A DNA stretch of 64,000 bases from Takakia lepidozioides. Taxonomy: Eukaryota > Plantae > Bryophyta. Below, one piece after another: positions 18,153 to 56,973 of this stretch. The stretch spans positions 90,644,001-90,708,000 of the forward strand of contig CM060731.1 in the NCBI GenBank assembly GCA_030704615.1, in the 5' to 3' direction. Each line of letters opens with the position of its first letter. Position 1 is the stretch's first letter. The position numbers were made by a program, and so were the translations under genes. The notes under the pieces were generated by a model. It was not told where the DNA came from, searched no databases, and saw nothing but the letters and a program-made list of their open reading frames with translations.

Positions 18153-18190
<38 letters not shown>

Positions 18191-18622: not shown

Positions 18623-18779
18623 TCTAAAAGATGTGCCCTGCGCGTGGCTCGAGGAATGAGGGTGGGGGGGCGGCATATAAGCCAAGGGAGGCTCATTTTC
18701 CTCTCACTTCCTCTCCACACAACTTCTGTGTGCGTGACATGTAATTATTCCACGACATAATTTGAAGTGGTCTCGTCAA

Positions 18780-21624: not shown

Positions 21625-23240
21625 TCAAAATGCGGCGCCGCATTACTACCATTTGATCTCGCCTTACCTTTCGCATCCCGATGCAGGATAAAAATGCCAA
21701 GGTGGACTCGAGACACATAGAAATGCGGTGCGCATTTCCGTTGGGCCACGTGTTCATTTATCATGAAGTAGGAGCCAGTATGGGAATGCTGAGGGGCATT
21801 CCGTTGGAACTGTTGGAAATTGTATGCCACGGACGGAAATACGGCACTGCATTTTCGTCCCAGCGTCTGTTGAGTTACAGTGAAAACCCGCATTTCCGTT
21901 CCAAGCAGCGTTGAGTTGGATGCACAACGGAAATGCGGTTTCATGCCTGAGATGGAAAACGGAAATGCGGCGCCGCATTTCCATTCGACTGTTTCATGAC
22001 TTTCATCCAGAACGGAAATGCGGTGCCACATTTCCGTTCCATGGCTACATGCCTTACATGTTGGACGGAAATGCGGCGCCGCATTTCCGTTTAACTGTTT
22101 TATGACTTACAATCACAACGGAAATGCGGCACCGCATTTTCGTTCCACTGTTATGTACCTCCTACCTGATCGGGCTGTTGAGTTGGTGACTCACTTTTCA
22201 GGGCCCGGGAATATTGTGTTGACACTGAGGGAGAACCGGAACAGGTTTATGTTGGACGCGCGCGAGTACCACGACGATGTTGAGGATCTCCCACCCGCCA
22301 TGGAATACCTGCATGTTTTCACGAACCTCACCAATATAGATGTCTTGTATCTTCATGTGCACCATCTCCATCCAGATACCGGCAATGGTGGCTAGACGAA
22401 CACAACGCCACTCCTCATTATGGACCTGTTCTTTGAAGACTTCGTCGTCCGTGTAGTCGATCTGAACACAATGGAATAGGCATCGGGACGGGGAACCTCA
22501 GGACATTGTCGGTTGCGTTTCAATTCTACAGGCCGTGGTAGTGTTGTCCTCCATTTGGGGAGATAAGTTATTTAGAGAGGACAAATTTTGTGACTTCTTC
22601 CAATCCAGAACAAAAATAAAATTTTGCTGAAGTATGGATTTCTCTTCTGAATCGAGATGTGTTGAGGTTCTTGTACTTTCTGTTGTTGTCTTGTGTGCCT
22701 GAAGTCTGCAAGGTTTTCAATCGGAGTTCGGAGTCCACCGTCAACATGTGATTTCTTACTGTCTTACTATTTTGGCATATGTTTCACAATTTAGAAAGAA
22801 ACATCCCGAACGGAATGCGGCACCGCATTTCCGTTCAACCATGTGCCCGGTGGTACACGGGACCAAAATGCGGCACCGCATTTCCGTCGGCTCACTTGCA
22901 AAGGAAGAGCCCGGACGGAAATGCGGTACCGCGTTTCCGTCGGCTCACTTGCAAAGGAAGAGCCCGGACGGAAATGCGGTACCGCGTTTCCGTCGGCTGC
23001 ATTCCAAAGTAAGAGCCCGGACGAAAATGCGGCACTGCATTTCCGTTCCTGCCTATCCAAGGTGTCCCAGTCGACGGAAATGCGGTGCCGCATTTTTGTT
23101 CAACCATGGCTTACTTGTCCCATTTTACCGAAATGCAATACCGCATTTCCGTTCCAGTTGACGGAAATGCGGTGCCGCATTTCCGTTCACAATCAGAGAG
23201 AGGATGATGTCGAATGGGAATGCGGCACTGCATTTCCGTT
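21625..23240. repeat. Palindrome array of copy 1 (GGAAATGCGGYRCCGCATTTCC), split by an ORF cassette
   Basis: 53-bp spaced runs at 21961/22014/22067/22120 and 22917/22970/23023/23076/23129. Confidence 0.92.
22153..22566 (+). pseudogene. Orphan ~137-codon ORF inside the copy-1 array, with two in-frame TAG stops
   Basis: MYLLPDRAVELVTHFSGPGNIVLTLRE...LDAREY...GG*TNTTPLLIMDLFFEDFVVRVVDLNTME*ASG...VVLHLGR*; non-repetitive and protein-like; absent from copy 2. Confidence 0.55.
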
Positions 23241-23381
23241 CCGTCATGTGCACTGGGATGCTTTGTTCCGATACAACAGGAATGCGGCCTGTCTTTAAGA
23301 GCACAACTTGGTTGTCTAACCGTTTTAACTAACACTCCTGGCACTTGTCAGTGCGAACGGTCATGTCTGCATTGAGAATAT

Positions 23382-26300
23382 GGTAGGATCCACCCTTAGG
23401 AAAAACTGTCAGAAGATGTTATTGGTTCGCCGAATTGGCCATCATTGTCATACATACTGGATATGGAATCGGAGCTCTCACCTTCATGCATGTATCTTGA
23501 AACATTCTGCTCGACTTCAATGTGCGACTTCCAATCGTCGATGGATTCTGCAGTTCCAGTTACGTGGTGCCACTAAGCTTTGGTCTGTCGCTATAGGGAA
23601 CCTCACACTTGCCAACTTCGTGTTGTGTTCGATGGCTCCCGATTCCTACACTATAGTTTGCTGTCCTCCGCAATTTGGGAGAGCCAGGATCCCAAACGAG
23701 GGAGGACTTTGCAGAGTGACTGAGACTTACCTATGTTCCAAATTCAAGCTCAAACCGGGCACAGTTTATTTGGAAGAAGAAAGGAAGGATGTTCCTGGAT
23801 AGGTTGATCAGACCATTGTCGTGCCAGGTGCCGACGGAGGTTGCGGAATGGAGTGGCACGTACCCCCATCAGACACCATCTTGTATCGCGCTGTGGGAAT
23901 GCCCATTCCCTTCCCGAATCAGTCGTTGCCCACACCATCCACAAAGGAGTCGGGAAACCGACAGGCGGCCACTGCCACCAGAGAGGTATGTAACGGATAA
24001 TCATTCCCGACCTGGACCGTCAAGACCCTCCATAGCTTTTTGTGTGGAGGTATTCGACATTTCAGACGAGGAAAATGAGTGCATGGAGGTCCCCATGTCC
24101 TCCACACGGTCGTCCAAATCCGACATGGACGTCACTGCAGGTGCTATGCATGTACCACCGAGCATAACTCCAACCCGCTCCATTGTGCAGCTCCTACGGC
24201 AACATCCTCGATGGTTCCCGCTCCGAGCTGGCTGCTCTCGACTATGCCAAATTTCTAGTCAGGAAGGTAACGTATCTACCTCCCGAAGTTGATGGTAATG
24301 TGATCTTCGAGTTTCCACCTGTTACTTTGTCAAACAAAGCCTCAGGGATGTTAACAGACATGGATCGAAAGCATGACGGACACCCCTGGTGTGTGACGAA
24401 GACCAGTAGCACAAAAATTGCTGATGGTGTTCGTGTACGATACGTCCTCTGTGCGGGGAAGCTGAGGTGCCTCAATCCAGCCTGCTTCCACTTTCTCTCC
24501 AAAGGAGGGCGGAGAAACGAGACGGATTGGACTGACACAACCCATCATCCATTCATTGTCTCTAGCTAGGCTCCAACGGGTATTTTCAAGTGCGCACATT
24601 GCAAAGAACCACCGACATGCATGTCCATGTGCAGAGCCAAGCAATCTTATGTCATCATTTGCTCCCGGACTTGACTAGAGCTTGCATACACGTTGGGGTC
24701 CACTGCCACCCCTTGGCAAGAGGCAACATGCGGGAGGCTGTGCACGAAGCACACGACATCATAAAAGAGGAGGTGAAATTGAGCCCCGGAGCCAGACCAA
24801 AGCAGATTCAGCTCAAGGCAGCCCGTAAAATTGCTCTTGGCAAAATTATGTCTGAAGATGGAAAGGACCGAGTGCCCTTGAACGAAGAGGAGATGCTTGA
24901 CCTTTTGGAGTCCGTCTCGCACGTTTGTAGTCCGAATGTGCGGAATCACATCGTATCTTGCAAGCAGGAGTTCGGCCGGGGGTCGGACATGCACTCAATC
25001 CTGGAGGTGAAACGAAGGATTGGATATGACTACATCCAAGGTAGCAGGTTTCCAGGGCAAGGCAACAAATTTGATCGTTGTTATATTTTTAAAATGTCAA
25101 CGTGTGGGCCTGGGAGTGGAGTCGACTTGGTCACTCGAATGACAACTGGAAACTTGTCGAATGCTTGGGTGATGTTTGACCACATCAAGCGAATTACAAA
25201 CCATCAATGGGTGACCATGGGTGCGCATGTTTATGACTATCACTCAAAGAGGCTCATGACGATTGCAATCTGCGAGATGAAAGGGGAGGACACACAGTCG
25301 GAGATAAATCTGTGGGAGGGCATAAACGAACAGATGGCAAAGGCAGGTTTCCCAAAGCCCAATTTCAGGGGATTCATGGCAGACAACGCTCAGGCCAACT
25401 GGGCAGCGGTGCGGCGTGTGTATGGTGAGGACCCCAATGTTCCAATGGAGGGGAAAGAGAGATCATGTGGATTCCATTGGATGCAGAGTCTATCTCACTA
25501 CACTACCAAATTTGTTGCTAGCTCATTCCAAGCTGAACACTGTGTCCTTTGTACGGCGTGGAAGGATGCACCCACATTTGATGACGCAGATGTTAAGTTT
25601 GCTATCATGAGGCTTGGTGGAACACGTCAGGTGCAGTGGAGACAACCAATCTGGGAGCCTTGCACAGCTGGTTGGGGTGGTGGCATTTCCGGTATGGAGA
25701 GTTCGGATAGTACAAGCGGGAGGTATGATGCTAGACTTTTGCTGCAATTGTCGTTCTATTACGAACCTTTCCATTTTTCCCTCACCCTTGTTTATATCCT
25801 TGTAGGAGCGGTGCCTGGATTCTGACACGGACATGCCAAACACGAATATGGCTGAATCAGTCCACTCCTCCTGGCAAGCGTCTTCTGCCGCACATCTGGT
25901 GGACGTAGTGACGGCCACAACGGAGGACATCGACAGAGCAATTATGCAGCAAGCCAGGTACTACAAGTTCTTGAGCCGGAAACAATGGGGCTTTGGGCCG
26001 GATAGGGATGAATTGTTGGTACGAACAGCTTTGAGGTCGAAGAATCCACTGAAATGGGTGACAACATTGCGAGAGAAGATCAAAAGGACGCATCTGCACC
26101 GTAGAGGTGAACACTTAGAGGGGGACGTCCGTACTCGCCTTATGAGGCGGAGGATTGAAGAGGAACCCGGGTGTGAAGAGGATTCCTGGAGATCCGACAG
26201 GAACATTCGGTCAACACCTCGAGGTCCCGTCATGTTGCCGCACAATCTGTCTTCCATCAGTGGAAGCTTAAGAGTTTCCAGATCGCCATCGCCTTCAAGC

Positions 26301-27198
26301 GAGGATTCCGTGCGAGAAATTCCCACCGCTCGCCTGCCCCAGATTCCGCCCGCTGTTATGCAGTATGGCCAAGCCATTGTGGAGACGATTGTATCTGCGT
26401 CACAGTGGAGAATTGCTTGCACAAGGCCGACGTTTCGAGGCAGGTGTTCCGCAATTTGAGTGGATACACGGCAACGTTGTTTAGAGATGATAAGGAGGAA
26501 TCCAGATGGGGCTGTCCGTGCTCCTACTTTTACAGGAAGATTTGTCCATGCAAAGTTTTCGGAGGCGACAAGTTCTGCAGGCATGACATTATGACTTGCG
26601 TGTATGGAAAGCCCAAGTACGGCATACAAACAATGCTAGAGGCTCCCCCAGTCTGGCCGGTGGAACCAGGATGCGATCTGAGTCAGGTTGAGGCCGACGC
26701 CCTTACTGCCGCAGGATTTCGGATGGTGCAGCGCACTGACGTCCCAAACAACCATTTCCGCTTCCACAGCCTCCACCACCGACCACTATGAGAGCAAGAA
26801 CAATGGGATGCAACAACTCTAAGCATCCTACACACCGTTGGGGGAAACCGAAGAGGCGGAAACCTCCCTCAAAAGTGAACAAGACAAGGATGGGGAATGC
26901 ACTTCGGATGAGCTGTACAATCTAGAGCTCAACAGAAGTGCCCCCACCAGGCTTTGGGCATATGTATCAGATGGCCACGGCAAGCTCAGCTGTCCGCAAT
27001 GAGGTGTACACCATCACCATTTCAGAATTACCCACCTGCAATTGCACCGACTTCTAGATCATGGCAAACAAGGGGGCATCATACGTGTACCTAAAGAGAC
27101 TCCGGTGTAATTCCACAACTCATCACTTCATACATGCACCAGGGTTGAGCCCCCAAGAGGTGTACATTCTTCTGAATATGGATCCAGGGGACCAGTGA
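23382..27198 (+). pseudogene. MULE transposase, copy 1 (GCM-like ZnF, DDE, SWIM), disrupted
   Basis: ORFs 24183-24569, 24590-25825, 25833-26459. Motifs VMFD, FMAD, CGFH, NMAES. The SWIM CPCKH segment is lost by a small deletion. Start approximate. Confidence 0.88.
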
Positions 27199-29688
27199 GT
27201 TTGGCTTGCGGGCCACAAGACAATGTTATGCCCATCCTTTTCGAAGTTTCAGTTATAGTAGAATTGTACTGCTGCAAGTACCTCTGACTCTGACCACAAA
27301 AAGGTTCGATTTATGTCTTCCCTACCAGTAACCTATTTTGCTCGAACTAAGATAATACTATGCCATTAACTTCTGTTTCCACGTGCTTGTATTTTTGTTT
27401 TTTGGGGGGTTCCTGTTTTTCTGCTCTCCCAAACTTTGCTTTCCTCATTGGACCCCCCGCAAGGAAATGCGGCGCTGCATTTCCAAGTAACGTCGTAGGT
27501 ACTGGTAGTTGCGGCCTTCGTCATAGTAAGATAGTCGCACCGAGTCTTCAGGGGGCCGACCGTCGTGAACAGCGAACCCCTCAAAAATCTCGCACGTGCG
27601 AGCTGTAATGCGGCACCGCATTTTCCAGTTGAGTCGCAAACCTTTCCCGCCGAATGCAGGAAGAAGAAAGAATTTTGAAGCACTGCAGACTCTATTGTTG
27701 CATTGGGATCATACAATCGCGGCAAAAGGGTCAGCTTCATTCCAATGTTAGGGCATATGAAACCGCAGAATACTCTATACAGGCCAGTATGCGGTGTCTT
27801 TTTGCTGTGGTATATTGGATTTCTCGTTGCACGGTCAGTCATTTCCATGAGCAGATCTAAAAAACCATGAGCGGAATTGTTACTGACGACATATCTTCGC
27901 CGCATTACAGGATCTGGAACTTCCAAAAACGGCAATGTCAAATTAAAAAATATTATTTTAATACTTTTTTAATCTGCCGCATTTCCAAATTTGGAGGAGT
28001 CCGCTCATGAAAACCGCGTGTCTTGGACTTCGGCTCACCACTCATGCGGCTCTTGCGGCTCATGGCTCATGGTTTCTGCTCATGAAATAGTAAACCTCCG
28101 GCGATGCATCATTCAGATCAGTGTCTAGGCTAGGAGGGGAAGATCGCTGAGGACTTGAGGCTTCTGCAATCGTCACTATAGGGGCCAAGGGTGCCTGGGA
28201 ATCACCCACCCAGCTGGGGCTGGCTGGCATTGAAGAAGAAGGGGGATCCAGGTAGATCAGGCCCTTGGATTGGGCCTGGTGCGCCATGAAGAACCCGGTT
28301 CCAATGGAGGGCTGTAGGCGCCTGGGATCGCCGAACCTGGAGGGACTTGCTCTTGAGGGAGCCGATCTGAAGGCTTGATTGAGAAGAGGACCCATTGGTG
28401 GAGCAGAGAAACAGCTGCGGAAGACTCGAGACTTAAGGGAGCTGGAGAAGACTGGGTGGGAGATAACAAACGAGAATGAGAATGAAGAGAGCAACGAAGG
28501 AAGAGAGAGCAAGGAGCTGCAGTCTTTCGAGAGAGACTGAAGCGGCGCGCGTACAAAAAGGAGAGGTGACGAGCTTGGCTAAGCAGCTGAATGAAGGCAC
28601 TGGAGCAGCGAGTGAGGGATGCAGGTGGGGAATTTAGTGAAGGTGACGGCTGCCTGGTGGCAATAGCAATAGCCAGAGCTTGCCGGTGATCATTACTCGG
28701 ATGAAAGATGGAGTGAGATGATTGGCTCGGGCAGGGTTAATGAGGGAAAATGGGATGAGGTTCACTAGCAAGGCGGCTTAGCATTAAGGGAGATTGATGA
28801 GAACTTACTTGTGGTATAGATTCCTAAACATGCCAGAGGGATGAAGATGGCTTGTTCATCAGGGGATGAAGCCAAAACTGGAGTTTGAAACGACCTATCG
28901 GTTGAGGACTTGGGCGATGATGGTTCAAAATGAGAGAAGGGGTACGGGGGTTAGCTTCAAGGACATGATGATGATTCGTACGCATGAAGCTGGAGACGAG
29001 GATGAAGAAGCACCATAGAGAGCCATTCACGAAGGGCTCTCTCTCACCGCATAACGCGGAGCTCTTCCTCCGCCTCCATCTTTCGCAGTTTTCTCCACAA
29101 AATAGAAGTTGATTCGGAAAAAAAAAAAAACACTCAATTTTATAAAAAAAGAAAAAAAGAAAATGTAATGGACGATTTTGTATTCAAAAATTAATATTAT
29201 TCTGGGCTCGTCCCTCATCTTCTTTGATGTGTATTTTGCCTTATGGCATCTTTCAGGGTTTAATTTTTCCCTCCTTCAATAAAGTAATTGGCCAACGCCT
29301 TTTATTTAAAAAATAATATATCTATTATTTGTTTTTATTCTCTCATCTGCTCACATGGCTAAACCTATTCTCAAGTTTAGCCACAGAGGGATGACGTGGC
29401 CTTATGTGTGACTGCGTCTGTCGCTCCACAAATCCTTTCGACAGTGCCAGGACTTACCTCCATGCAGGTAATGTAACTACACGTAAGTGCATTTAGAACA
29501 CTGGTATTACCTCCCTGAAAGTATAACTTTGAACTAGCTTCCTTTGAATAGTACCCAGGTGTGTCAGCGTGAGAGTATTGTATACATGTCGGTATCACTG
29601 TGTCAATGAACAACCTCCTTGGAGGTTGTGTGTGATCTGATTTATTGTGTATGTGTATCCAAAACCACAACTTGGAGAAGTTACGAGA

Positions 29689-41399: not shown

Positions 41400-42500
41400 A
41401 AATGTCATTAGTGAAGTCCTCCCCCTATGTTTCGAGCCTCTTTGCCTTTGCTTTAAGCCCAAGTGCAATCTCTTATGTATCCAAGTGCTTCTCCCATGTA
41501 GAGGCCCAAGTGCGACCTCCAGTGTCCAGTGTCACCTAAGTCCAAGTGCAATCCCAAAACCCACTTTGCTATTTTTGCAATCTCCCATGTTGAGGCTTCA
41601 TATATTGATATATCCACTTTGCTATTTTTCGCGAATTTCCAGCGACCAAAAGCACTTGAAAATTCCAAATCTCCCAGGTGAAGGGCCAATCATTGCTCTA
41701 GGAAAGCCCACTTTGCTATTTTGTGTGAATTTTCAGCGACCCAAAGTACTTGGAATTCCACATCTCCCACACCGCTGGTCCAAAAATCATGAGACCAAGC
41801 CGGTGCACCCCTCCTCATCGAGGGCTTTCCAACGGCACCAAGCACCAATGCTGGCGAGGTTTGGGAGATCTCAACGACGCTACAAAACAAAACAAATGTC
41901 TCGCTTCATATATTGATACGCTTCATATATTGATATGAAGCAAGCCATATCTGGGGTAGCCTGTGCCGTTGGCCCAGGTGTCCAGTGTCATCTAAGTCCA
42001 AGTGCATCAATATATGAAGCAAGCCATATCTAATCATTTTTTGCCCATAGAGCCTACGACCAGATTTGAACCGGAAACCTTTCCCTTGATATCTCTCATG
42101 TTGAGGCTCCAATCATTGTCCAGTGACCAAAAGTACTTGAAATTCGTTTTAGCCATATCTCATCATTATATATTTATTATTATTTATTTTTCCACAGAGC
42201 CTACGACCAGATTTGAACCGGAGACCTTTCCCTTGATATCTCTCCTCTCGAGGCTCCAACCATTGTCTCAGGAATGCCCACTTTGCTATTTTTTTTTCCG
42301 AATTTCCAGCGATCAAAAGTACTTGAAATTCCACATCTCCCACACCGCAAGTCCAAAAATTATGAGACCAAGCCAATGCACCCTTCCTCGTCGAGGGCTT
42401 TCCAATGGTACCAAGCACCAGGGCTAGGTCCCCGCGGTTTGGGACATCTCAACGTGGCAAAACAAAACAAAACAAAACAAACGTCTCGCTTCATTAGAGA
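41400..42500 (-). mobile_element. Degenerate copies of the non-autonomous Helitron-like family at 57-59.7 kb
   Basis: Shares GTAGCCTGTGCCGTTGGCCC, the tRNA-like block, GAGGGCTTTCCAACGG..CCAAGCACC and (AAAAC)n. Confidence 0.75.
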
Positions 42501-43888
42501 GCATAGCACCTTACGGGGCCAGACTTTTTTGCCAGGTGAGGATGGTCAAAGTAACTGTGACAAAGGGATGGAAAAAATGGAAGTTGCAGCTTAAATGACA
42601 TGGTGATTGTCAAGATGATCTATTCAACTTTGCTATAAATTCACACCTTCAGCTTACCACACATAAAACCCCGTAAATGCACTTGCAGCTACATACATGT
42701 TCCTACATTACTGACGTAGTATGAAAAGATTCACAATGGAATTGCTGTCGAAGAAGCTCTCAAAAGTAGTTGCTACCCGAGCATAAGGTAGGATTTGAAG
42801 TTACTCATGTTCAGTACAGAGTCCATATGACAATCGGCATATTAGCTTGCTAGATACTAAATCTTCAGTAACATTGCTAATTCATAAAAACTTGCTATTC
42901 CATTTGGAGCTAGTATTGAGAACAAAATTACATCAGAGAGACAAATCCTTGAACAAAAGGGCAGAGATCTTAGGTGATCAGTCTGCTACTAACCTGTGAT
43001 AAGAGGAATTATGTAGCCCACAGCCTGCACGCCGCATCCCAAGCGAGATATAGGGCATCGACTTCGGATTTTGCTTGGTTGTATTGGTGACAACTGGGCA
43101 CCAATACATAGCAGCATCAGAGTTAGGGTTGCCACACCAAAAGGGAGCAAGAAAAACTACGTTCTCCTTTCAGCTCTAAGGGACGAAGCTTGTCGAAATA
43201 AGCATCCAATGACTTGAGACCTTGTAAATCCTTTCATTTTTCCTCTAAACGGCCTCTTCCAGAACCATGGCTGCCTGCTGACACCCTCTTGTTCTTTGAC
43301 TCTGAAATAGGTACGGATACCGAAGGTGGTCCAATTGCCACACCATTCCTTACTGCTTCGGGTGTTGTGGACCCAATTAATTCTCTCTTGTGGAGCTTGC
43401 TGAAATATGCAGGGGGCTGCTATTTCATGAGCCATGAGCCATGAGCCATGAGCCATGAGCGGCATGAGCCATGAGCAGAGTCGTAAGTGTCGAAAAAAAC
43501 ATGAGCAGGACTATTTTCCGGAAATGAGTGTCCGCGGGAATAGGGTTTAGGGTGTCACGGTCATAGGGGGAGAAGGACCTCCCGATGAAGGAGGTTCGGC
43601 AATGTTTTTTAGAATTACATATTGAAAGGCAATGTTTCGCGAATGGTAGGGTGGTACTGCTCTGTACAATGGGGGCCCATTTCAGCCTACCAGCCACTTG
43701 CAAAATCCACCCACACTCCCAATCCCAAACGAAATGAGGAATGATGCATTCTGGGAACGATGGATACAGAATAGAACAAAAAGAGGGCACAATGGGGTTT
43801 TTATTGATCCACATGAATTGCATTTGAAGCATGTCTACTGTGCTGATTGTGCAAACAAATCTTTAGCCCTGTGCCTTCTGAATACAAG

Positions 43889-44452
43889 TCACGTTGTCAA
43901 TGGGACTTCGACTGCTCTGAGAACTAGCTCATGAGTCATCGGGCTCCTCCAGGTAAACTGGATTGCAGCCGTTGTACCGCCCCTGTTGATGTTCACCACA
44001 ATGTCGTGCCCTTCAATCATACCACCATCGAATATGGAAAGCTTCACGTTTTCGTCGTCCATACCAATGCAAATGTCCCCATACAATGGAGAAGAGGAGC
44101 GCACTCCTTCAAGAGTATACGTCTCTCCGATGGAATCCACCCACGTCCACTGGCAGCAGTTCCACCGCAACAGCATAGCAGTGCGCATTCTTCTGCATGG
44201 GTGCCCGTCGTAGCTGGGAAAATCGGAATCAAGGATGCGCAGGAGCCACGTACTCCTCAGACCAAGATCGTGACCCCGCTCGAAGACATAGTGGCCTGGG
44301 ATATACTCAAAAGCGGACAATGTTTCCACATTCGAACCAGTATCTTCTGTGTAATCTGTGTACCAAATAACGATGTCTCCCAATGTGGCCAAATACATTG
44401 CATAATCGAAGCCTCCATAAGGGCAGTCATCCCGGTTCCGGAAGCACGACAT
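43889..44452 (-). CDS. Orphan cargo ORF A (187 aa, uninterrupted)
   Basis: MSCFRNRDDCPYGGFDYAM...LGDIVIW...WNCCQW...YGDI...DGGMIEGHDIVV...ELVLRAVEVP; paralogous to ORF B. Confidence 0.75.
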   Translation of the reverse strand: MSCFRNRDDCPYGGFDYAMYLATLGDIVIWYTDYTEDTGSNVETLSAFEYIPGHYVFERGHDLGLRSTWLLRILDSDFPSYDGHPCRRMRTAMLLRWNCCQWTWVDSIGETYTLEGVRSSSPLYGDICIGMDDENVKLSIFDGGMIEGHDIVVNINRGGTTAAIQFTWRSPMTHELVLRAVEVPLTT

Positions 44453-44962
44453 CCTTGCAAAGAAGGACCTGAGGACCTCTTTGATGCCGATGACAATGAC
44501 CTTGCGGACAACAACAAAGCCCTTAGATTTTTGAAATGATGAGAAGCGGAAGAGCAGTGCGGGCTCCAATAATGGAGCATTTGGGTCCCACGTACCCACC
44601 AATCATCGTGTAACGTGTTCATCACGCCAGCGGTGGATGAACCGATACCTCTTTCTCATCCACGGGGTATAGTTTGAAATCTGCCACCAAAGTCCATCCC
44701 CCGGATGGAAATTCGGCGCCGCATTTACATCGAAGGGGGGATGGACTTCGTCGTCTCGAGTGGCTATAGGCCCACCTGGCACTTACTACCCATAGTTTGC
44801 ATGGCAGGGAAGGAAACTGAAACGGCTACATTCATGGAGCAGCCAATCTTCATCCGTGCAGGTTCCTGTAGGGGGGAAATTTAAATGTGCCCTGGAGTGT
44901 TTGTGAGGAATTGCAGCGTTTGCTTGAACTTCTTCCAACCACCGCGCTGCTCTTTTTCAAGG

Positions 44963-45541
44963 ATGTCGTGCCGTCGAAATCCTACCGACTGCCCTTATCA
45001 TGGCCACAATTATGCTATGTTCAAACCAGAATTAGGAGACATCATTGTCTGGCTCTCTGTTTTCACATACGCTTCTGGAATCAAGCGGGAGTCTTTGCGC
45101 GCAATGGAGTATTTGGAGGGCTATTACCGCTTTGAGCGAGGTGAGGGCGAGGGTCAATGCGGTCCGTGGGTCCTGAAAATTGTTGACCTCGATATACCAA
45201 GGTGGAATGGGATGCCGGACAGATCACGCACGGCCTCACTTTGGCGTTGGAACTGCTGCTAGTGGACCGGGAAGGACGGCACCGAGAAAAACTATATTCA
45301 TGGAGTTCACTCCGCTCTTCCAGTGTATGGAGACATTCGGCTGAGTTGCGAAGACGAATCGCACGGGCACATGAGGCCCACAGTGACCTTGTCAATGTAT
45401 GATGGTGGTATGATTGATGGGCATGACATTGTCGTCAGCTCCACCAAGGGCACCAGATCGACCGCATCGCAGTTTACCTCGAGGTGCCGCATCAGTAATG
45501 AGCTTGTTTTGAGGGCTATCGAAGTTCCGTCGACTTGGTGA
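44963..45541 (+). pseudogene. Orphan cargo ORF B (~192 codons), paralog of A, one in-frame TAG
   Basis: MSCRRNPTDCPYHGHNYAM...LGDIIVW...WNCC*W...YGDI...DGGMIDGHDIVV...ELVLRAIEVP; same CAAGGATGTCGTG start context as A. Confidence 0.75.
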
Positions 45542-45814
45542 CGCCAATGTAGAAGGAGTAAGGGCTTAGATTTGTCTTGAGTTGCTAAATGTGAGACACC
45601 GTGTTTGATCAATAAAACAACCCATCGTACCTCACTTCTGTGTGCTTCTGTTTCATCGTGTTCAAGAACTGCCGTAATTGGCCCACTGTTTACAATTTGT
45701 GGTCTCATTTCTACAATGTGTCTGTCCATATGAATATACCAGAGTCAGCGATATCAGAGTCCTGAGGTGAAGGAAATCCATATATGCGTAAAAGGAAACA
45801 TGTACACGCCGAAG

Positions 45815-46740
45815 CTCGGAAATTCGGCACCGCATTTCATTTTTCTCCATGCAGCGATTTCTGGCAGCTCCCTTTTCTCTGTTGTCGTCGTAACGGAAAT
45901 GTTGTACAACATTTCATTTCCTAACATGGCATTACCATACTTCGAATTGGAAATGCGGCACCGCATTTCCATATTGGACCTTGAATTGTCCGAGCATGTC
46001 CAGTCGCTAATGCTTGTCCATGTCCATACTTGAAATGCGGCACCGCATTTCCATGTCCGTCATCGAAATTTCGTACCGGACAATGAAATGCGTCACCGCA
46101 TTTCCGGAGAGCACAATGGAATGCGGTGCCGCATTTCCGTCCAACAAGACGGAATGCCCACACGGGTCTGGAATTGGACAAACAACGATGTCTCTTTTGG
46201 AAATACGGCGCCGCATTTCCATGTTTGGCAATCGAAAGTTTTTATAGAACAATGTAATGCGGTGCCGCCGGTGCCACATTTCCGTCAAAGGGTCTGGAAT
46301 TGGACAAACAACGATGTCCGTTTTGGAAATGTGGCGCCGCATTTCCATGTACGTCATCAAAATTTCTTATTGGACAATGGAATGCGGTGCCGCATTCCCG
46401 TCTAGCATCATGGAATGGGGAGCCGCATTTCCGTCGATGGGTCTGCAGTTGGAGAAATGTCCATCTCCAAAATGTAAATGCGGCACCGCATTTCCATGTT
46501 TGACCTCCGCATTTCCATTTATCCCCATGGAAGGAGCTGGCAATCGGCAAAACTGCCGTGTCGAAAACGGAAATCCGGCACCGCATTTCCGTTCGGCCGA
46601 ACAGTTTCTGATGTCCAAACCATGAAACGGAAAATTGTTCTTGCCCCGGTTTTGGAAATGCGATGCTGCATTTCCAAAGGAGGTTTTTGCAGTTGCCACA
46701 TTTCCGTTCCAACATTGAAATGCGGTGCCGCATTTCCGAT
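45815..46740. repeat. Left cluster of the 22-bp palindrome (~15 copies, mostly irregular spacing)
   Basis: Copies at e.g. 45949, 46031, 46084, 46199, 46325, 46378, 46569, 46716; some pairs are 53 bp apart. Confidence 0.88.
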
Positions 46741-46873
46741 TTTGGGAGGGACCAGGTTTGGACGATGTTGTCGTTGAGAAGCACATGGGAGAGGGGACAT
46801 GAAGGACGGGGAGAATTTCCTTTATATACTCTAGAAGGGAATTTAAATGTACAGAGAGTTCATTAAAATTCTA

Positions 46874-49800
46874 TTAATCTTGAAAATCATCACTATCGTC
46901 GTCCTGTCCTTGACTGTCCTGCTCCGCCTCCACCCCGTCATTGTCTTTTTCATCTCCAGCGGACTGCTCGTTGGCCAGGCTTTCGAAAATCCCATCTTCA
47001 CCTTGCGGAACCGACCATCTCACCTCCGTTGGCTCGTCGTCCTCCCTGTTTGCATCGCTCTCATCCGCTGAATCACATATGAACTTTCGCACCCGTCTAC
47101 CTGTCTCAGCTGTTGCCAACTCTTTCCTTATCCTTCTGTCCTCCCTAGCCATCTCCAAAATCTGCTCTACTTTACTGGGATTCTCACATCGTCTAATCGC
47201 TGTATTTGCGAGTTTAGCTGCATAACTAGGAAGGAGTAGTCCTTCACCGGGCTCGTCATGAAGTCGCCCCTCGCAAATAATGGGACATTCTTCCTGGCAG
47301 GAAGTGTAGGCCCTACATGTTTTGACCCGGATCCTGGAATCCTGCACATAACAATCACCAACGAGACCAATGAGAACCACAGTCAGGAAATGCGTTTGAC
47401 AAAAAATCACCCAGAAGGCTTTGCAAACTTACAATGTTTGCACTCACTCGTATTCCGGGTTCTCCTCGGCATCAATGTCCACTGTCTCTTCCTCCGACTC
47501 CGACAAATCCGAGGAGTCTTTGGCTTCAATGGGAGCCTTCACATTCCGTTGTGGCCCTTCCAGATGGGATCCCCAGACGGATGTGTCCTCCTCGTAGGCA
47601 AAGAGGTGCCGGTCGGAAAACCGCCCAACCCACATTGAGGCACCTGTTACAATGCCATCCACACATTATGACATGGCCCTTCAGATGTTGCAAATTAAAG
47701 CATAACGAGAATTTGCAGAACAGCATACAACAAGATTCTGCATACCTGTCCCACAGATGAGGTCGAGCACTGTGCCCTCCACGTCAGTGCATGTCTCCAT
47801 AATTGTCTGAATGAAGGCAGGACTCCGAGTCCGTGAATACCGCAGGGGTTCAGTTGAAGTGAGGCTATGAGGGAGAAGTTCCGTGGGAACGTTGTTGAAC
47901 AGAACGTCGTAATCGATGGGGTCGCAGTTCGGGTCAACCAACAATCCCTCCTTCCGGAAAGCAAAGGTGGAGTTCTCCTTCACAAAGCAGTATGCATTGA
48001 ACTGCTTCGTCTGCATACACAGTGGGGAACGATTAGAAATCGAATGCGGCACCGCATTTCAAAACTCCTAAGAAAATGAAAGGACGAGTGTCAATGTCGT
48101 AATTACCTTCTTCCCTTCCGACCGAAGGCCCAATGTGTTGATGCACGTCCACTTCTTCTTCAGAATTGGGACGGCGCTCTTGCGGGTCTACTTCGCAATT
48201 CCTGTTTGCGTGTTTTTGCCTCTGCTCGCTAGGACAACCACACAGCCTCTGTCGTCCAACACCCTGCAGGCGAGCCCAAATCCTTTCTTCCAAAAGTCCT
48301 CGGAGTACCTGTTCCAAGATGGCAAAGCTTGCAGTCCTTCCACAGGCTCTCCGTCCGGAATATCCAAGATGATCATATCGCAAGACCACTCGGTGGCATT
48401 TCCGCCCCTCCTGCAATCCTTGTCTGCACACACCGAACGAGACCATATTCAGAAACCCAGGGGTGTCGGAAGGCTCTTTGGCAGCCGCCTTTTTCAGTGC
48501 TATGCCCTTCAGACCCTCCATGGTCTTCATGTATGCCAACTTGGCTGCCCGTCCATCCAAAGAGCAGGGAGGAGTCTGCCGCCTTCACCTTGAGGATGAC
48601 ACACTCCACCATGTAATGCCAACCAATGTGCTTGGCATGGTTCTGCTTGATGTACTCCCACCAGGCAAGAAGTCAGTGATTCTCGTCCCACACAAAGAAC
48701 ATTTTACCCGACATATGGCCGAAGTCTGGATCACCCTTTAGCGTTGCCTCAAATCGTCGTTGCGAGTGTGCCAGTGGGTATCCCATGTTGACAATTCATC
48801 CGCAGTGGGTCCACGAGATTCGCCGTCCTCATTCTCAAGGGAAACGTAGAAGTCTGGCGAACCTAGACGGTACCCTTCTCGAAATGCAAACTTGAGCTTA
48901 TCCACATCTCCGGGAAGTGCCTGCCTGACGATGGGAAGGGAGACCATGCGACAGAGTGGGATTCGAAGAGTCCGCTGGAATACCCTGCTGCCCAGAACTC
49001 TGCCAATGCTACTGTGTGTCTCCTCCAACATTGTATCCGCTGCACTTTGGAATTCCTCCGGAGACTGCTGGTGGCGGTAGGGGCTGAGCGGCTGAAGCAT
49101 CCCCAACTGGAGCTGCACTCTGGGGAATCTTTGCGGGCAATTCTGCAATCGCAGAGGCCTCATCCGGGCCTGCAGTATTCTGAAGATCTTCCTCAACGGT
49201 GGTCAGGTCTTGCTGCGAACGTTGAGCGGCAGCACCCTCCTCCGGTACCACATCGACGAAATCGGTCGATCCCATTGCCTTCGCTGCAGCAGAGACGCCC
49301 TCAACATCACCAGGTTGGAAATCAAGTAGGAACTGGGCTTCAGCTCGTGGAATCGGTTTTGCGGGAGACTGCTCCGCCCTCCCCCTGATTGCCTTCTGCT
49401 TCCTCATTCTTGCAGGTGAAGGTGTCTGCTGCAATTGAATCTGCCTTATTCGCGTGGGTGGGGGGGAAACGGCCTGGTCCGGTTCAGAAACAAGTTGAAG
49501 GACGGGCTGCTTCTTCTTCGTCTTTGCTGGAGAAGGGCTAGACCTCTACTGACGATTCTCCATGACCTTCGAACGCGAGTCGCTCTCTGGGGCTTTGAAC
49601 TGCAAAGACTTGCCCTTCGAAGCCGCGTCCTTGAAACGCACAGGGCTAGGCCCGGCAGGAAGACCCGTGCTCGTGGATCGGTTGGGTGTACGTGCTGCAG
49701 CTAGCTACACGGACTCTGCCTGCGGCTCTTCGGATTCCTGCGATCCCTCCAGCACGTCCACCTTTCCGGTTAGGCATGCAAACATCTTCTGCATTCAAGT

Positions 49801-50045
49801 CTCCTAGCATACAGTCTAAGAATTGCAGAAGAAAAATGAGGGGGGTTTCGGTGCTCGTTCAGCTGGCTAATCCCGATAGCACGGAGCTCTCACTGGTGGC
49901 TGGGTTGCCTGCGTGGCCTGATGCTGCGAGATGGCAATCTCCTCCTGTAGACGCATCTACTTCTTCCCCTTCGGCATTGGCCTACGTCCGAAGTACAATT
50001 TTCGGAGCTTGCGACGATGTCTCTTCTCTGGTTCGAGCATAAGAA
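46874..50045 (-). pseudogene. Intron-containing gene: basic/low-complexity N-terminus, ParB/Srx-like domain, beta-class amino DNA methyltransferase-like domain, acidic tail
   Basis: ParB-like: RIPLCRMV...VRQ...DVDKLK..F..GY and FFVWDENH*LLAW (48661-48699; DGNHRL-like). MTase: DMIILDIPDG (motif IV), A.RVL...G.VVV, then RSPAFIQTIMETCTDVEGTVLDLICGTG|ASMWVGRFSDRHLFAYEED (motif I) joined across GT-AG introns 48011-48106 and 47644-47745. Several frameshifts and stops. Confidence 0.75.
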
Positions 50046-50389
50046 GAAAAGAGACAGGGAAAAGGGCGAAAGAGTGCAGATGGAAAGGGCGCGAGAGGGG
50101 TGACTGAGTAGACACGACAAAAGAAGATGAAACGGCGGTGATGCACCACTTGGGTTCGAAAGGCTTGGACGAAAGTGTCTCCTCGTGGACTTTGCGTCAT
50201 TACGAAATTCAAATCGTTAAGGGTACGCCTGCCGTCCGAAAAACAAACATCATTATCCAACGGTCAGGCCGTGCCGCCTCGTGCCACTTCAGTCAGATAG
50301 AGTGCAGACATGTGCCACAATTCCGTTGCTCCACGTGTTCACATTTCATGGCATTTCTGTCTCAGCGTCTGATGAGTTGGAGTGAAAAT

Positions 50390-51592
50390 GCAAATGCGGC
50401 GCCGCATTTCCGTTAAGTACCATCCCGAAGCTACACATACCGTACTTGTTGGAAGAAAATGCGGCACCGCATTTCTGTTCCACCTTCACAAACCTTAGTT
50501 GTTGAACGGAAATGCGGCACCGCATTTCCGTTCTGGAATGTCGGAAGGTGCGATTCGGACGGAAATGCGGCACCGCATTTCAGTTCCCGTGGTTTATGAT
50601 TTTCAATCTGAACGGAAATGCGGTACCGCATTTCCGTTCCACCTTCACATACCTTAGTTGATGAACGGAAATGCCGTGCCGCATTTCCGTTCGGGAAAGT
50701 ATGAAGGTCTCACCTGGACGGAAATACGGTGCCGCATTTCCATCCCACAGCTCCATGCCTCATATACAAAACGGAAATGCGGCGCGGCATTTCCGTTCTG
50801 GAATGTCGGAAGGTGCGACTTGGACGGAAATGCGGTGCCACATTTCAGTTCCGATGGTTCACGATTTTCAGTCAGAACGGAAATGCGGTACCGCATTTCC
50901 GTTCTAGAGAGTATGAAGGTCTCAAACGGACGGAAATGCGGTGCAAAATTTCCGTCCCTCCACTCCATGCCTGAGATAGAAAACAGAAATGCGGTGCCGC
51001 ATTTCAGTTCTCGTTGTTCATAATTCTCAATTAGAACGGAAATGCGGTACCGCATTTCCGTTCAGGAGAGTATGAAGGTCTTAACCGGTCGGAAATGCGG
51101 TGCAGCATTTCTGTCCCTCGGCTCCATGCCTCAGATACAAAACGGAAATGCGGCGCCGCATTTCCGTTCTGGAATGTCGGAAGGTGCGACTCGGACGGAA
51201 ATGCGGTACCGCATTTCCGTTCTGGAGAGTATGAAGGTCTCAAACGGACGAAAATGCGGTGCAACATTTCTATGCCTCAGCTCCATGCCTCAGATACAAA
51301 ACGGAAATGCGGCGCCGCATTTCCGTTCTGGTATGTCAGAAGGTGCGACTCGGACGGAAATGCGGTGCCGCATTTCAGTTCCCGTGGTTCATGATTCTCA
51401 ATCAGAACGGAAATGCGGTACCGCATTTCCGTTCTGGAGAGTATAAAGGTTTCCCCCGAACGGAAACTCGGTGCCGCATTTCCGTCACACTGGTGCATGA
51501 CTAAGATGCAAAACGGAAATGCGGCGCCGTATTTCCGTCCAACAGGAATCGAAAGTATCACTCCGGACAGAAATGCGGAACCTCATTTCCGC
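50390..51592. repeat. Main palindrome array: 23 copies, 20 consecutive at exactly 53-bp period
   Basis: Starts at 50508, 50561, 50614, 50667 ... 51462, 51515 (every step +53); 22-bp palindrome plus 31-bp spacer. Confidence 0.95.
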
Positions 51593-51715
51593 ATGCGGAA
51601 CCTCAATGGGTTGCATTGTTCCGAAACAACACAATTGCGGCTTGTCTTAATGAGCACAACTTGGTTGTCTGACGGTTTTAACTAACAGTCCTGGCACTTG
51701 TCAGTGCGAACGTTC

Positions 51716-54700
51716 ATGTCTGCACCGAGAATACTGCTGGATCCACCCTCAGGAGAAACTGTCAGGAGATGTTATTTCGTCGCCGAATCGGCCATCATTG
51801 TCATACTTACTAGCTATGGAATTACACCTCCCACCTTCATGCATGTAGCTTGAAACAATACTTTCCACTTCAATGTGCGACTTCCAATCGTCGATGGACT
51901 CCGCAGATCCACTTACATGGTGCCTGTGAGCCTTTGGTCTGTCGTTATACTGAACCTCACACTTGCCAACTTCGTGCGGTCTTCGATGGCTCTGAATTCC
52001 TACGCTATAGTTTGTTGTCCTCCGCAATTTGGGAGAGCCTGGATCCAAACGAGGGAGGACTTTGCAGGGTGACTGAAACTTACCTTTGTTCCAAATTCAA
52101 GCTCAAACCGGGCAGAGTTTATTTGGAAGAAGAAAGGAAGGATATTCCTGGACAGGTTGACGAGACCATTGTTGTGCTAGGTAACGACGGAGGTTGCGGA
52201 ATTGAATGGCACGTACCCCCATCAGACACCATCCTGTACCGAGCTGTGGGAATGCCCATTCCCTTTCCGAATCAGTCGCTGCCCACACCATCCACAAAGG
52301 AGTCCGGAAACCGACAGGAAGCCACTGCCAACAGAGAGGTATGCAACGATAATCATTCCCGACCTAGACCGTCAAGACCCTCCATAGCTTCTCGTGTGGA
52401 CGTATTCGACATTTCCGACGAGGAAGATGAGTGCATTGAGGTCCCCATGTCCTCCACACGGTCGTTCAAATCCGACATGGATGTCTCTGCAGGTGCTATG
52501 CATGTACCCTCAAGCATAACTCCAACCCGGTCCATTGTGCAGCTCTTACGGCAACATCACCTCGATGGTTCTCGCTCCGAGCTGGCTGCTCTCGACTATG
52601 CCAAATTTCCAGTCAGGAAGGTAACGTATCTGCCTCCCGAAGTCGATGGCAATGTCATCTTTGAGTTTCCACCTGTTACTTCCTCAAACAAAGCCTCAGG
52701 GATGTTAACAGACATGGATCGAAAGCATGACGGACACCCCTGGTGTGTGACGAAGACCAGTAGCACGAAAATTGCTGATGGTGTTCGTGTACAATACGTC
52801 CTCTGTGCGGGGAAGCTGAGGTGCCTCAATCCCGCCTGCTTCCACTTTCTCTCCAAAGGAGGGCGGAGAAACGAGACGGATTGAACTGACACAACCCATC
52901 ATCCATTCATTGTCTCCAGCCAAGCTCCTGCAGGTACTTTCAAGTGCGCACATTGCAAAGAACCACCGACGTGCATGTCCATGTGCAAAGCCAAGCAATA
53001 TTACGTAATCCATTTGCTCCCGAACTTGACTAGAGCTTGCATACACGTTGGGGTCCACTTCCACCCCTTGGCGAGAGGCAACATGCGTGAGGCTGTGCAG
53101 GAAGCACACGACATCATAAAAGAGGAGGTGAAATTGAGCCCCGGAGCCAGACCAAAGCAGATTCAGCTGAAGGCAGCCCACAAGATTGCTCTTGGCAAAA
53201 TCATGTCTAAAGATGGTTCAGACCGCCCTTGAACGAAGAGGAGATGCTTGACCTGTTGGAGTCCGTCTCGCACGTTTGTAGTCCGAATGTGCGGAATCAC
53301 ATGGTATCTTGCAAGCAAGAGTTCGGCCGGGGGTCGGACATGCACTCAATCCTGGAGATGAAACGAATGACTGGATATGACTACATCCAAGGTAGCAGGT
53401 TTCCAGGGCAAGGCAGCGAATCCGATCGTTGTTATATTTTTAAAATGTCGACGTGTGGGCCTGGGAGTGGAGTCGACTTGGTCACTCGCATGACAACTGG
53501 AAACTTGTCGAATGCTTGGGTAATGTTTGATCACATCAAGCGAATTACAAACCATCAGTGGGTGACTATGGGTGCGCATGTTTATGACTATCACTCCAAG
53601 AGGCTCCTGACGATTGCAATCTGCGAGATGAAAGGGGAGGACACACAGTCGGAGATGCATTTGTGGGAGGGCATAAACGAGCAGATGGCAAGGGCGGGAT
53701 TGCCAGAGCCCAATTTCAGGGGATTCATGGCAGACAACGCTCAGGCCAACTGGGCAGCGGTTCGGCGTGTGTATGGTGAGGACCCCAATGTTCCAATGGA
53801 GGGGAAAGAGAGATCATGTGGATTCCATTGGATGCAGAGTCTATCTCACTACACTACCAAATTTGTTGCTAGCTCATTCCAGGCTGAACACCGTGTCCTT
53901 TGTACGGCGTGGAAAGATGCACCCACATTTGATGACACGGAGGTTAAGTTTGCTATCATCGAGGCTTGGTGGAACACGTCAGGTGCAGTGGAGACAACCA
54001 ATCTGGGAGCCTTGCACAGCTGGTTGGGGTGGTGGCATTTCCGGTATCGACAGTTCGGACAGGACATGCGAGATGTATGATGCTGTCATTTTCGTGCAAT
54101 TGTCTTTCTATGACGGACATTTCCATTGGTCCCTCACCATTGTTTGTGTCCTTGTAGGAGCGGTGCTTGGATTCCGACACGGACATGCCGAACACAAATA
54201 TGGCAGAATCAGTCCACTCCTCTTGGTGAGCATATTATGCCGCACATCTGGTGGACGTAGTGACGGCCACAACGGAGGACATCGACCGAGCAATCATGCA
54301 ACAAGCCACGTACTACAAGTTCCTGAGCGGGAAACAATGGGGCTTTGGGCCGGACAGGGAGGAATTGTTGGTACGAACAGCTTCGAGGTCGAAGAATCCA
54401 CTGAAATGGGCGACAACATTGCGAGAGAAGATCAAAGGGACGCCTCTGCACCGCAGAAGTGAACACCTAGAGGGGGACGTCCGTACTCGCCCTGTGAGGC
54501 GGAGGATTGAAGAGGAACCCGGGTGCGAGGAATATTCTTGGAGATCCGACAGGAACATTCGGACAGCACCTCGAGGTCCCGTCATGTTGCCGCACAATGT
54601 GTCTTCCAGCAGTGGAAGCCCAAGAAATTCCAGATCGTCATCGCCTTCAAACGGGGATTCCGTGCGAGAAATTCCCACCGCTCGCTTGCCCCAGATTCCG

Positions 54701-55482
54701 CCCGCTATTATGCAGTATGGCCAAGCCATTGTGGAGACGACTGTGTCTGCGTCACAGTGGAGAATTGCTCGCACAAAGCCGTCGTTTCGAGGCAGGTGTT
54801 CCGCAATTCGAGTGGATACACGGCAACATTGTTTAGAGATGATAAGGAGGAATCCAGATGGGGTTGTCCCTGCTCCTACTTTTACAGGAAGATTTGTCCA
54901 TGCAAAGTTTGCGGAGGCGACACCCTCCCAGTTCTGGTTCTGCAGGCACGACATTATGACTTGCGTGTATGGAAAGCCCAAGTACGGCATACAAACTGAC
55001 GTCCCCAGACAACCATTTCCGCTTCCACAGCCTCCACCACCGACCCTGTGAGAACAAGAACAATGGGACACGACAACTCTAAGCATCCTACACATCGTTG
55101 GGGGAAACCGAAGAGGCGGCATTCTCCCTCAAAAGTGAACGAGACAAGGATGGAGAATGCACTTCGGATGAATTGTACAATCCAGAGCTCGACAGAAGTG
55201 CCCCCACCAGGCTTTGGGCGTGTGTATCAGATGGCCACGGCAGGCTCAGCTGTTCGCAATGAGGTGTACACCATCACCATTTCAGAATTACCCACCTGCA
55301 ATTGCACCGACTTCCAGATCATGGCGAACAAGGGGGCATCATACTGCCCTTGCAAGCATCTGTACTACGTGTACCTAAAGAGACTCCAGTGTAATTCCAC
55401 AACTCATCACTTCATACATGCACCAGGGTTGAGCCCCCAAGAGGTGCACACTCTTCTGAATATGGATCCAGGGGACCGGTGA
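51716..55482 (+). pseudogene. MULE transposase, copy 2: GCM-like ZnF, DDE core, SWIM
   Basis: DGHPW..CAGKLRCLNPAC..CAHC..C..HVGVHFHP; VMFD, FMAD, CGFH; intron ~54074-54158 then NMAES; SWIM CNCTDF..CKH. Stops and frameshifts present; start approximate. Confidence 0.9.
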
Positions 55483-56973
55483 GCTTGGCTTGCGGTCCCC
55501 AACCATGGTACGCCCATCCTTTTCGGAGTTTCAGTTGTAGTAGAACTGTACTGCTGCAAGTACCTCTGAGTCTGGCCACAGAAAGGTCAGACTTATGTCT
55601 TGCCTACCAGTAACCTGTTTTGCTCGAACTAAGATAATACTATGTCATTTACTTCTGTTTCTACGTGCTTGTATTTTTGTTTGTTGGAGGGTTCCTGTTT
55701 TTCTGCTCTCTCAAACTTTGCTTTCCTCATTCGACCCCCGGCAAGGAAATGCGGCGCCGCATTTCCAAGTAACGTCGTAGGTACTGGTAGATGCGGCCTT
55801 CGTCATAGCAAGATAGTCGCACCCAGCCTTCAGGGAGCCGACCGTCGCCAACACCAAACTCCCCAAAAATTTCGCACATGCGAGCCCTAATGCGGCACCG
55901 CATTTCCCAGTTGAGTCGCAAATCTTTCCCGCCGAATACCTGAAAATGACAGAATTGTGAAGTACTGCAGACTCTATTGGTGCAGACTCTATTGGTGCTG
56001 ACTCTATTGGTTCAATCGCGGCAGAAGGGTTAGCTTCACTCCAATGTTAAGGCATGTAAAACCGCGGAATACTCTATACAGGCCAGTATGCGACATCTTT
56101 TTGCCGTGGTATACTGGATTTCTCGTTGCACGGTCAATCATTTCCATGAGCGGATCTAAAAAACCATGAGCGGACTTGTTACTGACGACATATCTTCGCC
56201 GCATTACAGGATGTGGAACTTCCAAAAACGGCAAGGTCAAATAAAAAAATAAATTATTTTAATACTTGTTTAATCTGCCGCATTTCCAAATTTGGAGGAG
56301 TCCGCTCATGAAATCCGCGTGTCTTAGACTTCGGCTCACCGCTCATGCGGCTCATGCCTCATGGTTTCTGCTCATGAAATAGTAAACCTCGAAATATGCA
56401 TCCAGAACTATCCCCTGCGAGCAGCCCATCCTTGTGTCTCCCTGATGTTTTTGTCTGTTCTATCCTTGCTTGTGGTTTGGTTATCAGCCTCCAGTGTTGA
56501 TGTCGATGGATTACTTTTAGCCTGTACCTCATTCTGCTTAATCTAACTTGGAGGAAGACAACACAAACGACATTATGCTCTCCCCTAATTTGACTTCCAT
56601 ACCTCAGGCAAATCTAGCTCTTTGCAATTCTAGTAGACCCTGAGCTAGTATGAGTGTAGACGCCTATAGCGTCCATTATTTTCTTTTTGTTCCTCACAAA
56701 ACTGGATACAGGTTCGATGGCCACAAGCCTAAAGCACTGAGCAAACAATGCTTATGAGTACGTTATCTCTGTATCTGTCAGACAGGACTCAACACCGCCA
56801 TGAAAATCCGTTCAGAGAGTTCAAGAAGCTTCGGACAACTCAAGAACTCATTGTCGGTTTTTTCGGGCAGTCCGGGCAGGTTCAAAAACTTTGACGACAA
56901 TGATGATGTGGCACTTTGGCACCCTATTCCTGCTAAAACTAGTCTCCGACCTTTAGTCCTCGTTAGAATTATA

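Follow-up and report, generated by a model that had tools for sequence, protein, structure and literature searches.

We analysed a 64,000-nt stretch of DNA of Takakia lepidozioides (contig CM060731.1, positions 90,644,001 to 90,708,000; hereafter the window, in which coordinates are counted from the first letter). The window contains a Mutator-type DNA transposon that carries a methyltransferase-like gene on the minus strand (approximately 49950 to 46874). This gene is an antisense accessory gene of the transposon, and the transposase is divergent from it (Table 1). Carriage by a transposable element had been considered in a preliminary note made by a model from the letters alone (the sequence-only reading), and it is established here by a bounded element of 12,979 bp with a 10-bp target-site duplication (TSD). 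The D, D, CxxH, E and SWIM-like motifs of the transposase were found in the expected order in both element copies of the window, in a pattern that we take to be that of Mutator transposases; the Pfam profiles of Mutator-like elements (MULEs) were not matched. At its N-terminus the transposase carries a cysteine/histidine region of its own. The TSD falls within the 8-11-bp range of MULEs (PMC6446971; this and the other cited sources were available in part, and statements drawn from them hold for those parts), and the 21-bp terminal inverted repeat (TIR) is shorter than typical.

A single minus-strand frame contains DIPDG (48364-48350), RTRSP (47833-47819), VLDLICG (47770-47750) and RHLFAYEE (47611-47588), and the motifs quoted in the sequence-only reading are therefore real. 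That reading had also placed an intron at 47644-47745, whose removal would complete motif I. This intron (102 nt, GT..AG) contains two in-frame stops, and its removal fuses ...ICGTG to ASMW... in frame, as had been claimed. A further intron, 48011-48106 (96 nt, GT..AG), is also required and likewise contains two in-frame stops; the methyltransferase domain needs splicing because both introns contain such stops. Moreover, the distantly related locus L001 has introns at the positions of both (in the case of 47644-47745, also in the same phase), and the motif I intron of a second related locus, L004, matches 47644-47745 in position and phase. Similarity to the exon-fragment proteins P0001, P0002, P0003 and P0005, which derive from unspliced DNA, ends at the motif I intron, and similarity to the fragments P0015, P0016, P0018 and P0019 ends at intron 48011-48106. 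By their splice signals and their conservation, both are spliceosomal introns. Three contigs from two runs, which are possibly RNA and possibly DNA, contain no splice joint and one of them enters intron 1; we regard them as neutral evidence. Intron 48011-48106, the ParB-like N-terminus, the ends of the element and the palindrome arrays were absent from the sequence-only reading.

Table 1. Features of the transposon, its methyltransferase-like gene and the second element copy (positions in the window).
Feature	Position	Strand	Remarks
Whole Mutator-type DNA transposon, 12,979 bp	43412..56390	.	TSD flush with the ends; right end matches the end of the partial copy (28098)
Left TSD, 10 bp, GAAATATGCA	43402..43411	+	partner 56391-56400; only two occurrences in the window
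Left short imperfect TIR, then CATGAG subterminal repeats	43412..43432	+	partner 56370-56390; 17/21 match the reverse complement
Accessory open reading frame (ORF) A, 237 codons stop to stop	43889..44602	-	inverted paralogue of ORF B
Accessory ORF B, one internal stop	44885..45541	+	paralogue of ORF A
13-copy palindrome cluster in the spacer that separates ORF B from the methyltransferase-like gene (3' end)	45819..46736	.
Likely last exon, acidic C-terminal tail	46874..47341	-	candidate intron 47342-47447, from splice signals alone
Exon C: motif I end, next helix and strand (RHLFAYEE), acidic linker	47448..47643	-	homologous exon of L004: GSTFIAARALGHHVFGL
Intron 2, phase 1, interrupts motif I	47644..47745	-	102 nt; conserved in L001 and L004
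Exon B: strand, target-recognition region, RSPAF helix, motif I VLDLICGTG	47746..48010	-
Intron 1, phase 0, one palindrome copy at 48041-48060	48011..48106	-	96 nt
Exon A: motif IV region (DIPDG 48364-48350), helix, LDDRGCVVV strand	48107..48448	-	copy-specific stop 48188-48190
ParB/sulfiredoxin-like N-terminal region (LRIPL..., ...VWDENH*L)	48631..48968	-	putative; conserved with L001
Low-complexity N-terminal region of the same gene	49012..49956	-	candidate ATG 49956, start uncertain; common to the partial copy at 20434-21625
53-bp tandem array, palindrome in each unit (23 copies), between the divergent gene starts	50391..51589	.
Mutator-like transposase, broken	51814..55482	+	DRKHDGHPW 52717, FDHIKR 53526, FMADNA 53724, CGFHW 53817, TNMAES 54194
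SWIM-like finger of the transposase	55297-55359	+	SWIM PF04434 E=0.031, below cut-off
Second element copy, left-truncated, 82-89% identical	20434..28098	+	without methyltransferase exons; 17 palindrome copies

The beta-class amino-methyltransferase ancestry proposed in the sequence-only reading is well supported by profile comparisons. A home-made profile was built from 30 non-redundant phage beta-class enzymes, selected among 75 loci that E. coli YhdJ had retrieved. Against this profile the spliced product scored 20.6 bits (the best of 2000 shuffles reached 5.4 and the reversed sequence -0.9), and the unspliced read-through scored 17.3 bits. The alignment of the spliced product is colinear from motif IV through motif I, and the motif IV region is N-terminal to motif I, the permuted order of the beta class. 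In hhalign, the window product with 14 family fragments reached 96.8% with the phage alignment across 184 columns, while the reversed family gave 0.65%, 60 block shuffles at most 2.3% and PrmA 0.35%; an RNA or protein methyltransferase was rejected as the best match on this last comparison. One row of the family input (L001BC) has a 22-residue tail that is out of frame, which adds noise and no signal. When the exons were queried separately in the ESM Atlas, PF01555 clusters were found at 0.87 and 0.89 (rank 4, after three unnamed clusters), and we treat them as leads only. The best Pfam match was that of the homologue fragment P0002 (PF01555 positions 149-188, E=0.13, below the cut-off). No significant methyltransferase, ParB or MULE match was found in Pfam, PHROGs and NCBIfam scans of the pieces, and the family escapes these libraries on the pieces tried. 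PDB sequence searches gave nothing relevant, and tblastn against phages gave no match for the read-through and one chance match for the ParB-like piece. An unseeded AlphaFold model was poor (predicted local distance difference test 45) and had no fold match. When 23 phage enzymes were used as seed, the resulting model matched structures of the beta class (Z 13.9, root-mean-square deviation 4.0, 183 aligned), which is circular, and MT-A70 structures ranked below the beta class in this seeded model, a contrast that is not independent.

Motif IV reads DIPD in the window. In run X5, which comes from a separate study, one 337-nt contig of high depth carries all the run depth at 48356-48420 and shows one difference over 48309-48420; because this sole difference falls at 48413, its motif IV codons are those of the window. 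The distant relatives read DCPM (P0015), DYPI (P0017) and DCLR (L001), and the aromatic residue is absent in all three. By contrast, the phage enzymes have an aromatic residue at motif IV position 4 in 23 of 23 cases, with a variable position 2 (DIPY occurs). The position-4 aromatic of the canonical [DNSH]-P-P-[YFW] was thus found neither in the window, nor in the X5 contig, nor in the three relatives. DIPD is a family-level state and not decay of the window copy, because the X5 contig shares its codons and because the relatives read DCPM, DYPI and DCLR. In motif I (D-x-F-x-G-x-G), the Asp and both Gly are retained in the window, but the Phe is substituted there and in every exon B homologue that reaches this position. 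Because the motif IV aromatic has an established role, stacking the target base (PMC4738411), methyl transfer has likely been lost in the family protein. The caveat of the sequence-only reading, that this copy or the whole family may be catalytically dead, has become the central outcome of the analysis, and the comparison across copies that it had proposed gave a non-aromatic residue in every readable family member (four).

The window copy is dead and cannot make the protein, because it has two stops (TAG at 48188-48190, and 48673-48675) and a frameshift near 48753. The family is abundant: 11,995, 6,267, 2,268 and 170 contigs were found in four runs (two studies) on 2.5 kb. Both stops were absent in approximately 100% of the summed contig depth of the DNA runs, and the frameshift was absent in L001 and in some contigs. 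Among the majority or near-majority differences listed over 47449-48448 (40 of 198 and 40 of 67 differences being covered), 28 were scored, 9 intronic and 19 coding, and 12 of the 19 coding differences were synonymous. The expected synonymous fraction is 0.23 if all changes are allowed (P=0.0002) and 0.34 for transitions only (P=0.008). Moreover, 6 of the 8 scorable differences of a diverged contig of run X10 were synonymous (P=0.02), a count that leaves out 10 more listed differences past its one-base gap. As synonymous changes are in excess both within the family and against the diverged copy, the protein was likely under purifying selection while motif IV read DIPD.

Several features of the family copies were observed besides. 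The diverged X10 contig is a 1464-nt record at 48210-48367 of a subfamily with approximately 85% identity and the same species label, and matching loose ends occur in runs X5 and X2. Many family contigs diverge from the window at 48562, loose ends being present on either side of this point; other family contigs have 8 extra bases at 48434. The distance from the ParB-like region to motif IV is approximately 2.2 kb in L001 and 0.3 kb in the window. The window copy may be internally deleted, or the family may have a longer form.

The N-terminal part of the gene (48631-48968) is conserved with L001 at 33-48% identity, and L001 reads DGNHRL here. We take DGxHR to be the ParB/sulfiredoxin motif, and this is the sole basis of the ParB label. 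L001, L002 and L003 are 99.8% identical and represent a single locus, with L004 as another copy. L001 lies on an AT-rich contig, with approximately 42% identity to the window gene in exon B. In L001/L003 the methyltransferase-like gene is linked to a transposase N-terminus and to an array of approximately 51-bp units, whose sequence is unlike that of the window array. A eukaryotic small-molecule methyltransferase gene adjoins L003. The 1.84 billion representatives searched with phmmer yielded 7 fragments of the family and nothing else; word-based protein searches returned no longer homologue and no full-length annotated protein, which is weak evidence, and scans of viral contigs, one metagenome and one genome returned no relative. 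No ParB-like neighbour was present in the phage methyltransferase loci examined. The candidate L081 was rejected, as its 14-residue match is read antisense to an ordinary bacterial gene. L082 and L083, which share this 14-residue match, were rejected with it.

The element is rich in a 20-bp palindrome, GAAATGCGGYRCCGCATTTC, present 57 times in the window (0.02 expected) and always within the two element copies. The 40 palindromes of the full element lie in the spacers, in the array between the gene starts and, in one case, in intron 1, and 40 of 40 are outside the mapped exons. The element termini carry another repeat, CATGAG. One palindrome copy is at 44708, between ORFs A and B. The CpG observed/expected ratio was 1.36 in the array 50391-51589, 0.73 in the element genes and 0.45-0.58 in the flanks. 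The CpG excess of the array may reflect homogenisation (the palindrome itself has CGs) or protection from methylation.

Taken together, we give about even chances to the following reading: the gene encodes a maintained pseudo-methyltransferase, a fusion of ParB-type and beta-class parts, that acts as a non-methylating DNA-binding helper recognising the palindromes of its own element. The ParB-like and methyltransferase-derived parts would bind the palindrome arrays without methylating them, and the bound helper would shield or organise the element, with an effect on silencing or on how the transposition complex assembles, much as VANC does for VANDAL elements (PMC5735166). Binding to the palindromes and such an effect are both inferred. 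A bounded, high-copy element with a candidate target makes the question of writing marks or binding and shielding directly testable.

A number of observations weigh against this helper reading. In hhalign, the match to YhdJ as a single sequence was only 2.8%, and the A7 profile found no methyltransferase among PDB sequences. In the PF01555 comparison that the sequence-only reading had proposed, the exon pieces and the intron-containing read-through stayed below the Pfam cut-off. The ParB label is motif-level, and no library or PDB sequence search matched the N-terminal region. The L001/L003 layout is tandem instead of divergent, with the transposase fragment downstream of the gene and on its strand. 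The motif IV sequences of the three distant relatives are from decayed copies, probably of one lineage, and a minor aromatic-bearing subfamily is possible, as the differences considered were 40 of 67 in run X2 and 18 of 24 for the diverged X10 contig. The synonymous counts cover the listed differences. Finally, transposases can bind and activate their own copies, and the palindromes may be transposase sites.

Among the alternatives, we regard as unlikely, but credible, an active non-canonical amino-methyltransferase that marks the palindromes with N4-methylcytosine (4mC) or N6-methyladenine (6mA) and in which another residue holds the flipped base. The Asp and Pro of motif IV, a motif I of the form D-L-x-x-G-T-G and an acidic residue past the next strand are kept, the W of the conserved PxWN right after motif IV could provide the aromatic, and the frame was likely under purifying selection. 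Furthermore, annotations of the algal relatives describe them as putative N4C/N6A enzymes (PMC12477816, 10.1101/2025.02.11.637652), and some eukaryotic clades have unusual motif variants (PMC4738411). However, the position-4 aromatic is present in none of the four readable family members and in all 23 phage enzymes, and the motif I Phe is replaced in all the exon B homologues reaching it. If the non-canonical site did still methylate, the element would encode a transposon-borne 4mC/6mA writer in land plants.

A role in transposition or partition (dimerisation, synapsis or ParB-like target capture), with the methyltransferase fold as a scaffold and the transposase as the protein that binds the palindromes, appears rather unlikely. 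Two distant lineages have a transposase N-terminus linked to the gene, the transposase has the cysteine/histidine region mentioned above, the main array is directly upstream of the transposase, and integration of many MULEs depends on a second ORF that they carry (PMC6446971). Nevertheless, the palindromes are spread over internal spacers and an intron and not placed at the ends, which have CATGAG, and their layout resembles that of VANC targets (PMC5735166).

We consider improbable that the gene is a passive relic, long functionless, that hitchhikes on a successful transposon and in which DIPD was the inactivating mutation of the founder. The two stops and the frameshifts of the window copy fit such a relic, as does the finding that all the database homologues are short decayed fragments, with no full-length annotated protein found. 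By contrast, the synonymous excess in the family and against the diverged copy, the absence of the stops from the family majority, and the introns and motifs kept at approximately 40% identity in a distant AT-rich lineage, also lacking the aromatic, argue for maintenance. The proposal of the sequence-only reading that such a transposon family gave rise to, or transmitted, the domesticated 4mC enzymes of Marchantia (MpDN4MT1) or bdelloid rotifers (N4CMT) is very improbable and leaves the origin of those enzymes unexplained by the element: the permuted beta class and probably, for Marchantia, the host kingdom are shared, but MpDN4MT1 reads TSPPY and N4CMT reads SPPY while the family reads D-x-P-x, MpDN4MT1 is described as having no extra domains and N4CMT as being closest to phage and bacterial enzymes (10.1101/2021.02.12.428880, PMC8885841), and the phmmer search returned fragments of the family only.

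An extension of the helper reading is offered tentatively, as a possibility with the odds against it. The element would possess a land-plant Mutator anti-silencing system, independent of VANC, that arose from a bacterial ParB-methyltransferase. In this system an aromatic-less reader of S-adenosylmethionine and DNA, through a ParB-like clamp, would load at lineage-specific palindrome arrays and shield CG-rich repeats from 5-methylcytosine.

The remaining parts of the element and its surroundings were also inspected. ORFs A and B are divergently arranged, with 64% DNA identity (44954-45542), and had no Pfam or NCBIfam match. A repeat family with tandem units of approximately 107 bp flanks the element on both sides (56974-59663 and 41686-42494), and the insertion site of the transposon may have belonged to another mobile element. 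Two pol remnants, at 584-3500 (+) and 13195-15688 (-), end in chromodomain-like sequence; the Ty3/gypsy and chromodomain labels are our assumption. ORF remnants at 37155-38913 (-) with an N-terminal helix-turn-helix region are presumably of the pogo/Tc1 transposase type. At 17991-18626 there is an array of approximately 51-bp units with a hairpin-like core, GCGACCGCCATTACTGGCGGTCGC, which adjoins a region shared inversely with 61778-62107; this is possibly another palindrome-array element.

The idea of a transposon-borne amino-methyltransferase is not new, as accessory genes with ParB and methylase domains are already known in algal transposons; in the sources consulted they were noted and never assayed. 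The closest likeness is to Sola1-1_Ec32 of Ectocarpus, whose accessory protein combines a ParB-like and an N4C/N6A methyltransferase domain and was proposed to bind and modify its own element (PMC12477816). As in the window, where the ParB-like part is putative, ParB-like and amino-methyltransferase parts occur in one gene, on the strand opposite to the transposase, in a large DNA transposon. The window gene differs in its Mutator-type carrier and its land-plant host, and its motif IV lacks the aromatic, the two having been compared by description. In the Plavaka elements of Bostrychia, PAG2 combines PF01555 and SET, PAG3 combines a ParB-like domain and a 2-oxoglutarate oxygenase, and Mutator homologues occur in Chondrus (10.1101/2025.02.11.637652). 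Here again PF01555-type and ParB-like domains lie on giant DNA transposons and adjoin inverted-repeat tandem arrays. However, separate genes with other partner domains encode them there, and Pfam recognises PAG2, whereas in the window gene they are putatively fused and below the Pfam cut-off. In the literature consulted, which did not cover Iyer et al. 2011 (green algae) or a 2025 Cell paper on Marchantia, we found algal cases only and no land-plant report.

The VANDAL elements of Arabidopsis offer a likeness of layout. The targets of VANC are 8-9-nt motifs, tandemly amplified in introns, intergenic and upstream regions, and its anti-silencing effect was demonstrated by experiment (PMC5735166). 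Both systems are Mutator-type, have accessory genes and show a short motif tandemly amplified in non-coding parts, including introns. In the window, however, the motif is a 20-bp palindrome and the accessory protein descends from prokaryotic methyltransferases. The transposon-borne amino-methyltransferases of DIRS and long terminal repeat (LTR) retroelements provide a precedent for a transposon pseudo-enzyme (PMC4738411, 10.64898/2026.05.21.726589), the DIRS domains having been called likely inactive (PMC4738411), but they belong to unpermuted or Dam-like groups and are carried by retroelements (PMC4738411, 10.64898/2026.05.21.726589).

Compared with the beta-class PF01555 enzymes (M.MboII, M.RsrI, CcrM and M.PvuII), the family has motif IV before motif I and a colinear profile match over 184 columns, but it lacks the [DNSH]PP[YFW] aromatic and the motif I Phe, has introns, and is only approximately 12-18% identical. 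MpDN4MT1a/b and N4CMT are likewise eukaryotic, permuted and of prokaryotic origin, and the rotifer gene also gained introns; they are active host genes with (T)SPPY (10.1101/2021.02.12.428880, PMC8885841), whereas the window gene belongs to a many-copied transposon and has D-x-P-x. The kind of transposon accessory gene was already known; what is new here is the Mutator carrier, the land-plant host, a protein without the canonical motif that was nevertheless likely under selection, and a candidate 20-bp target.

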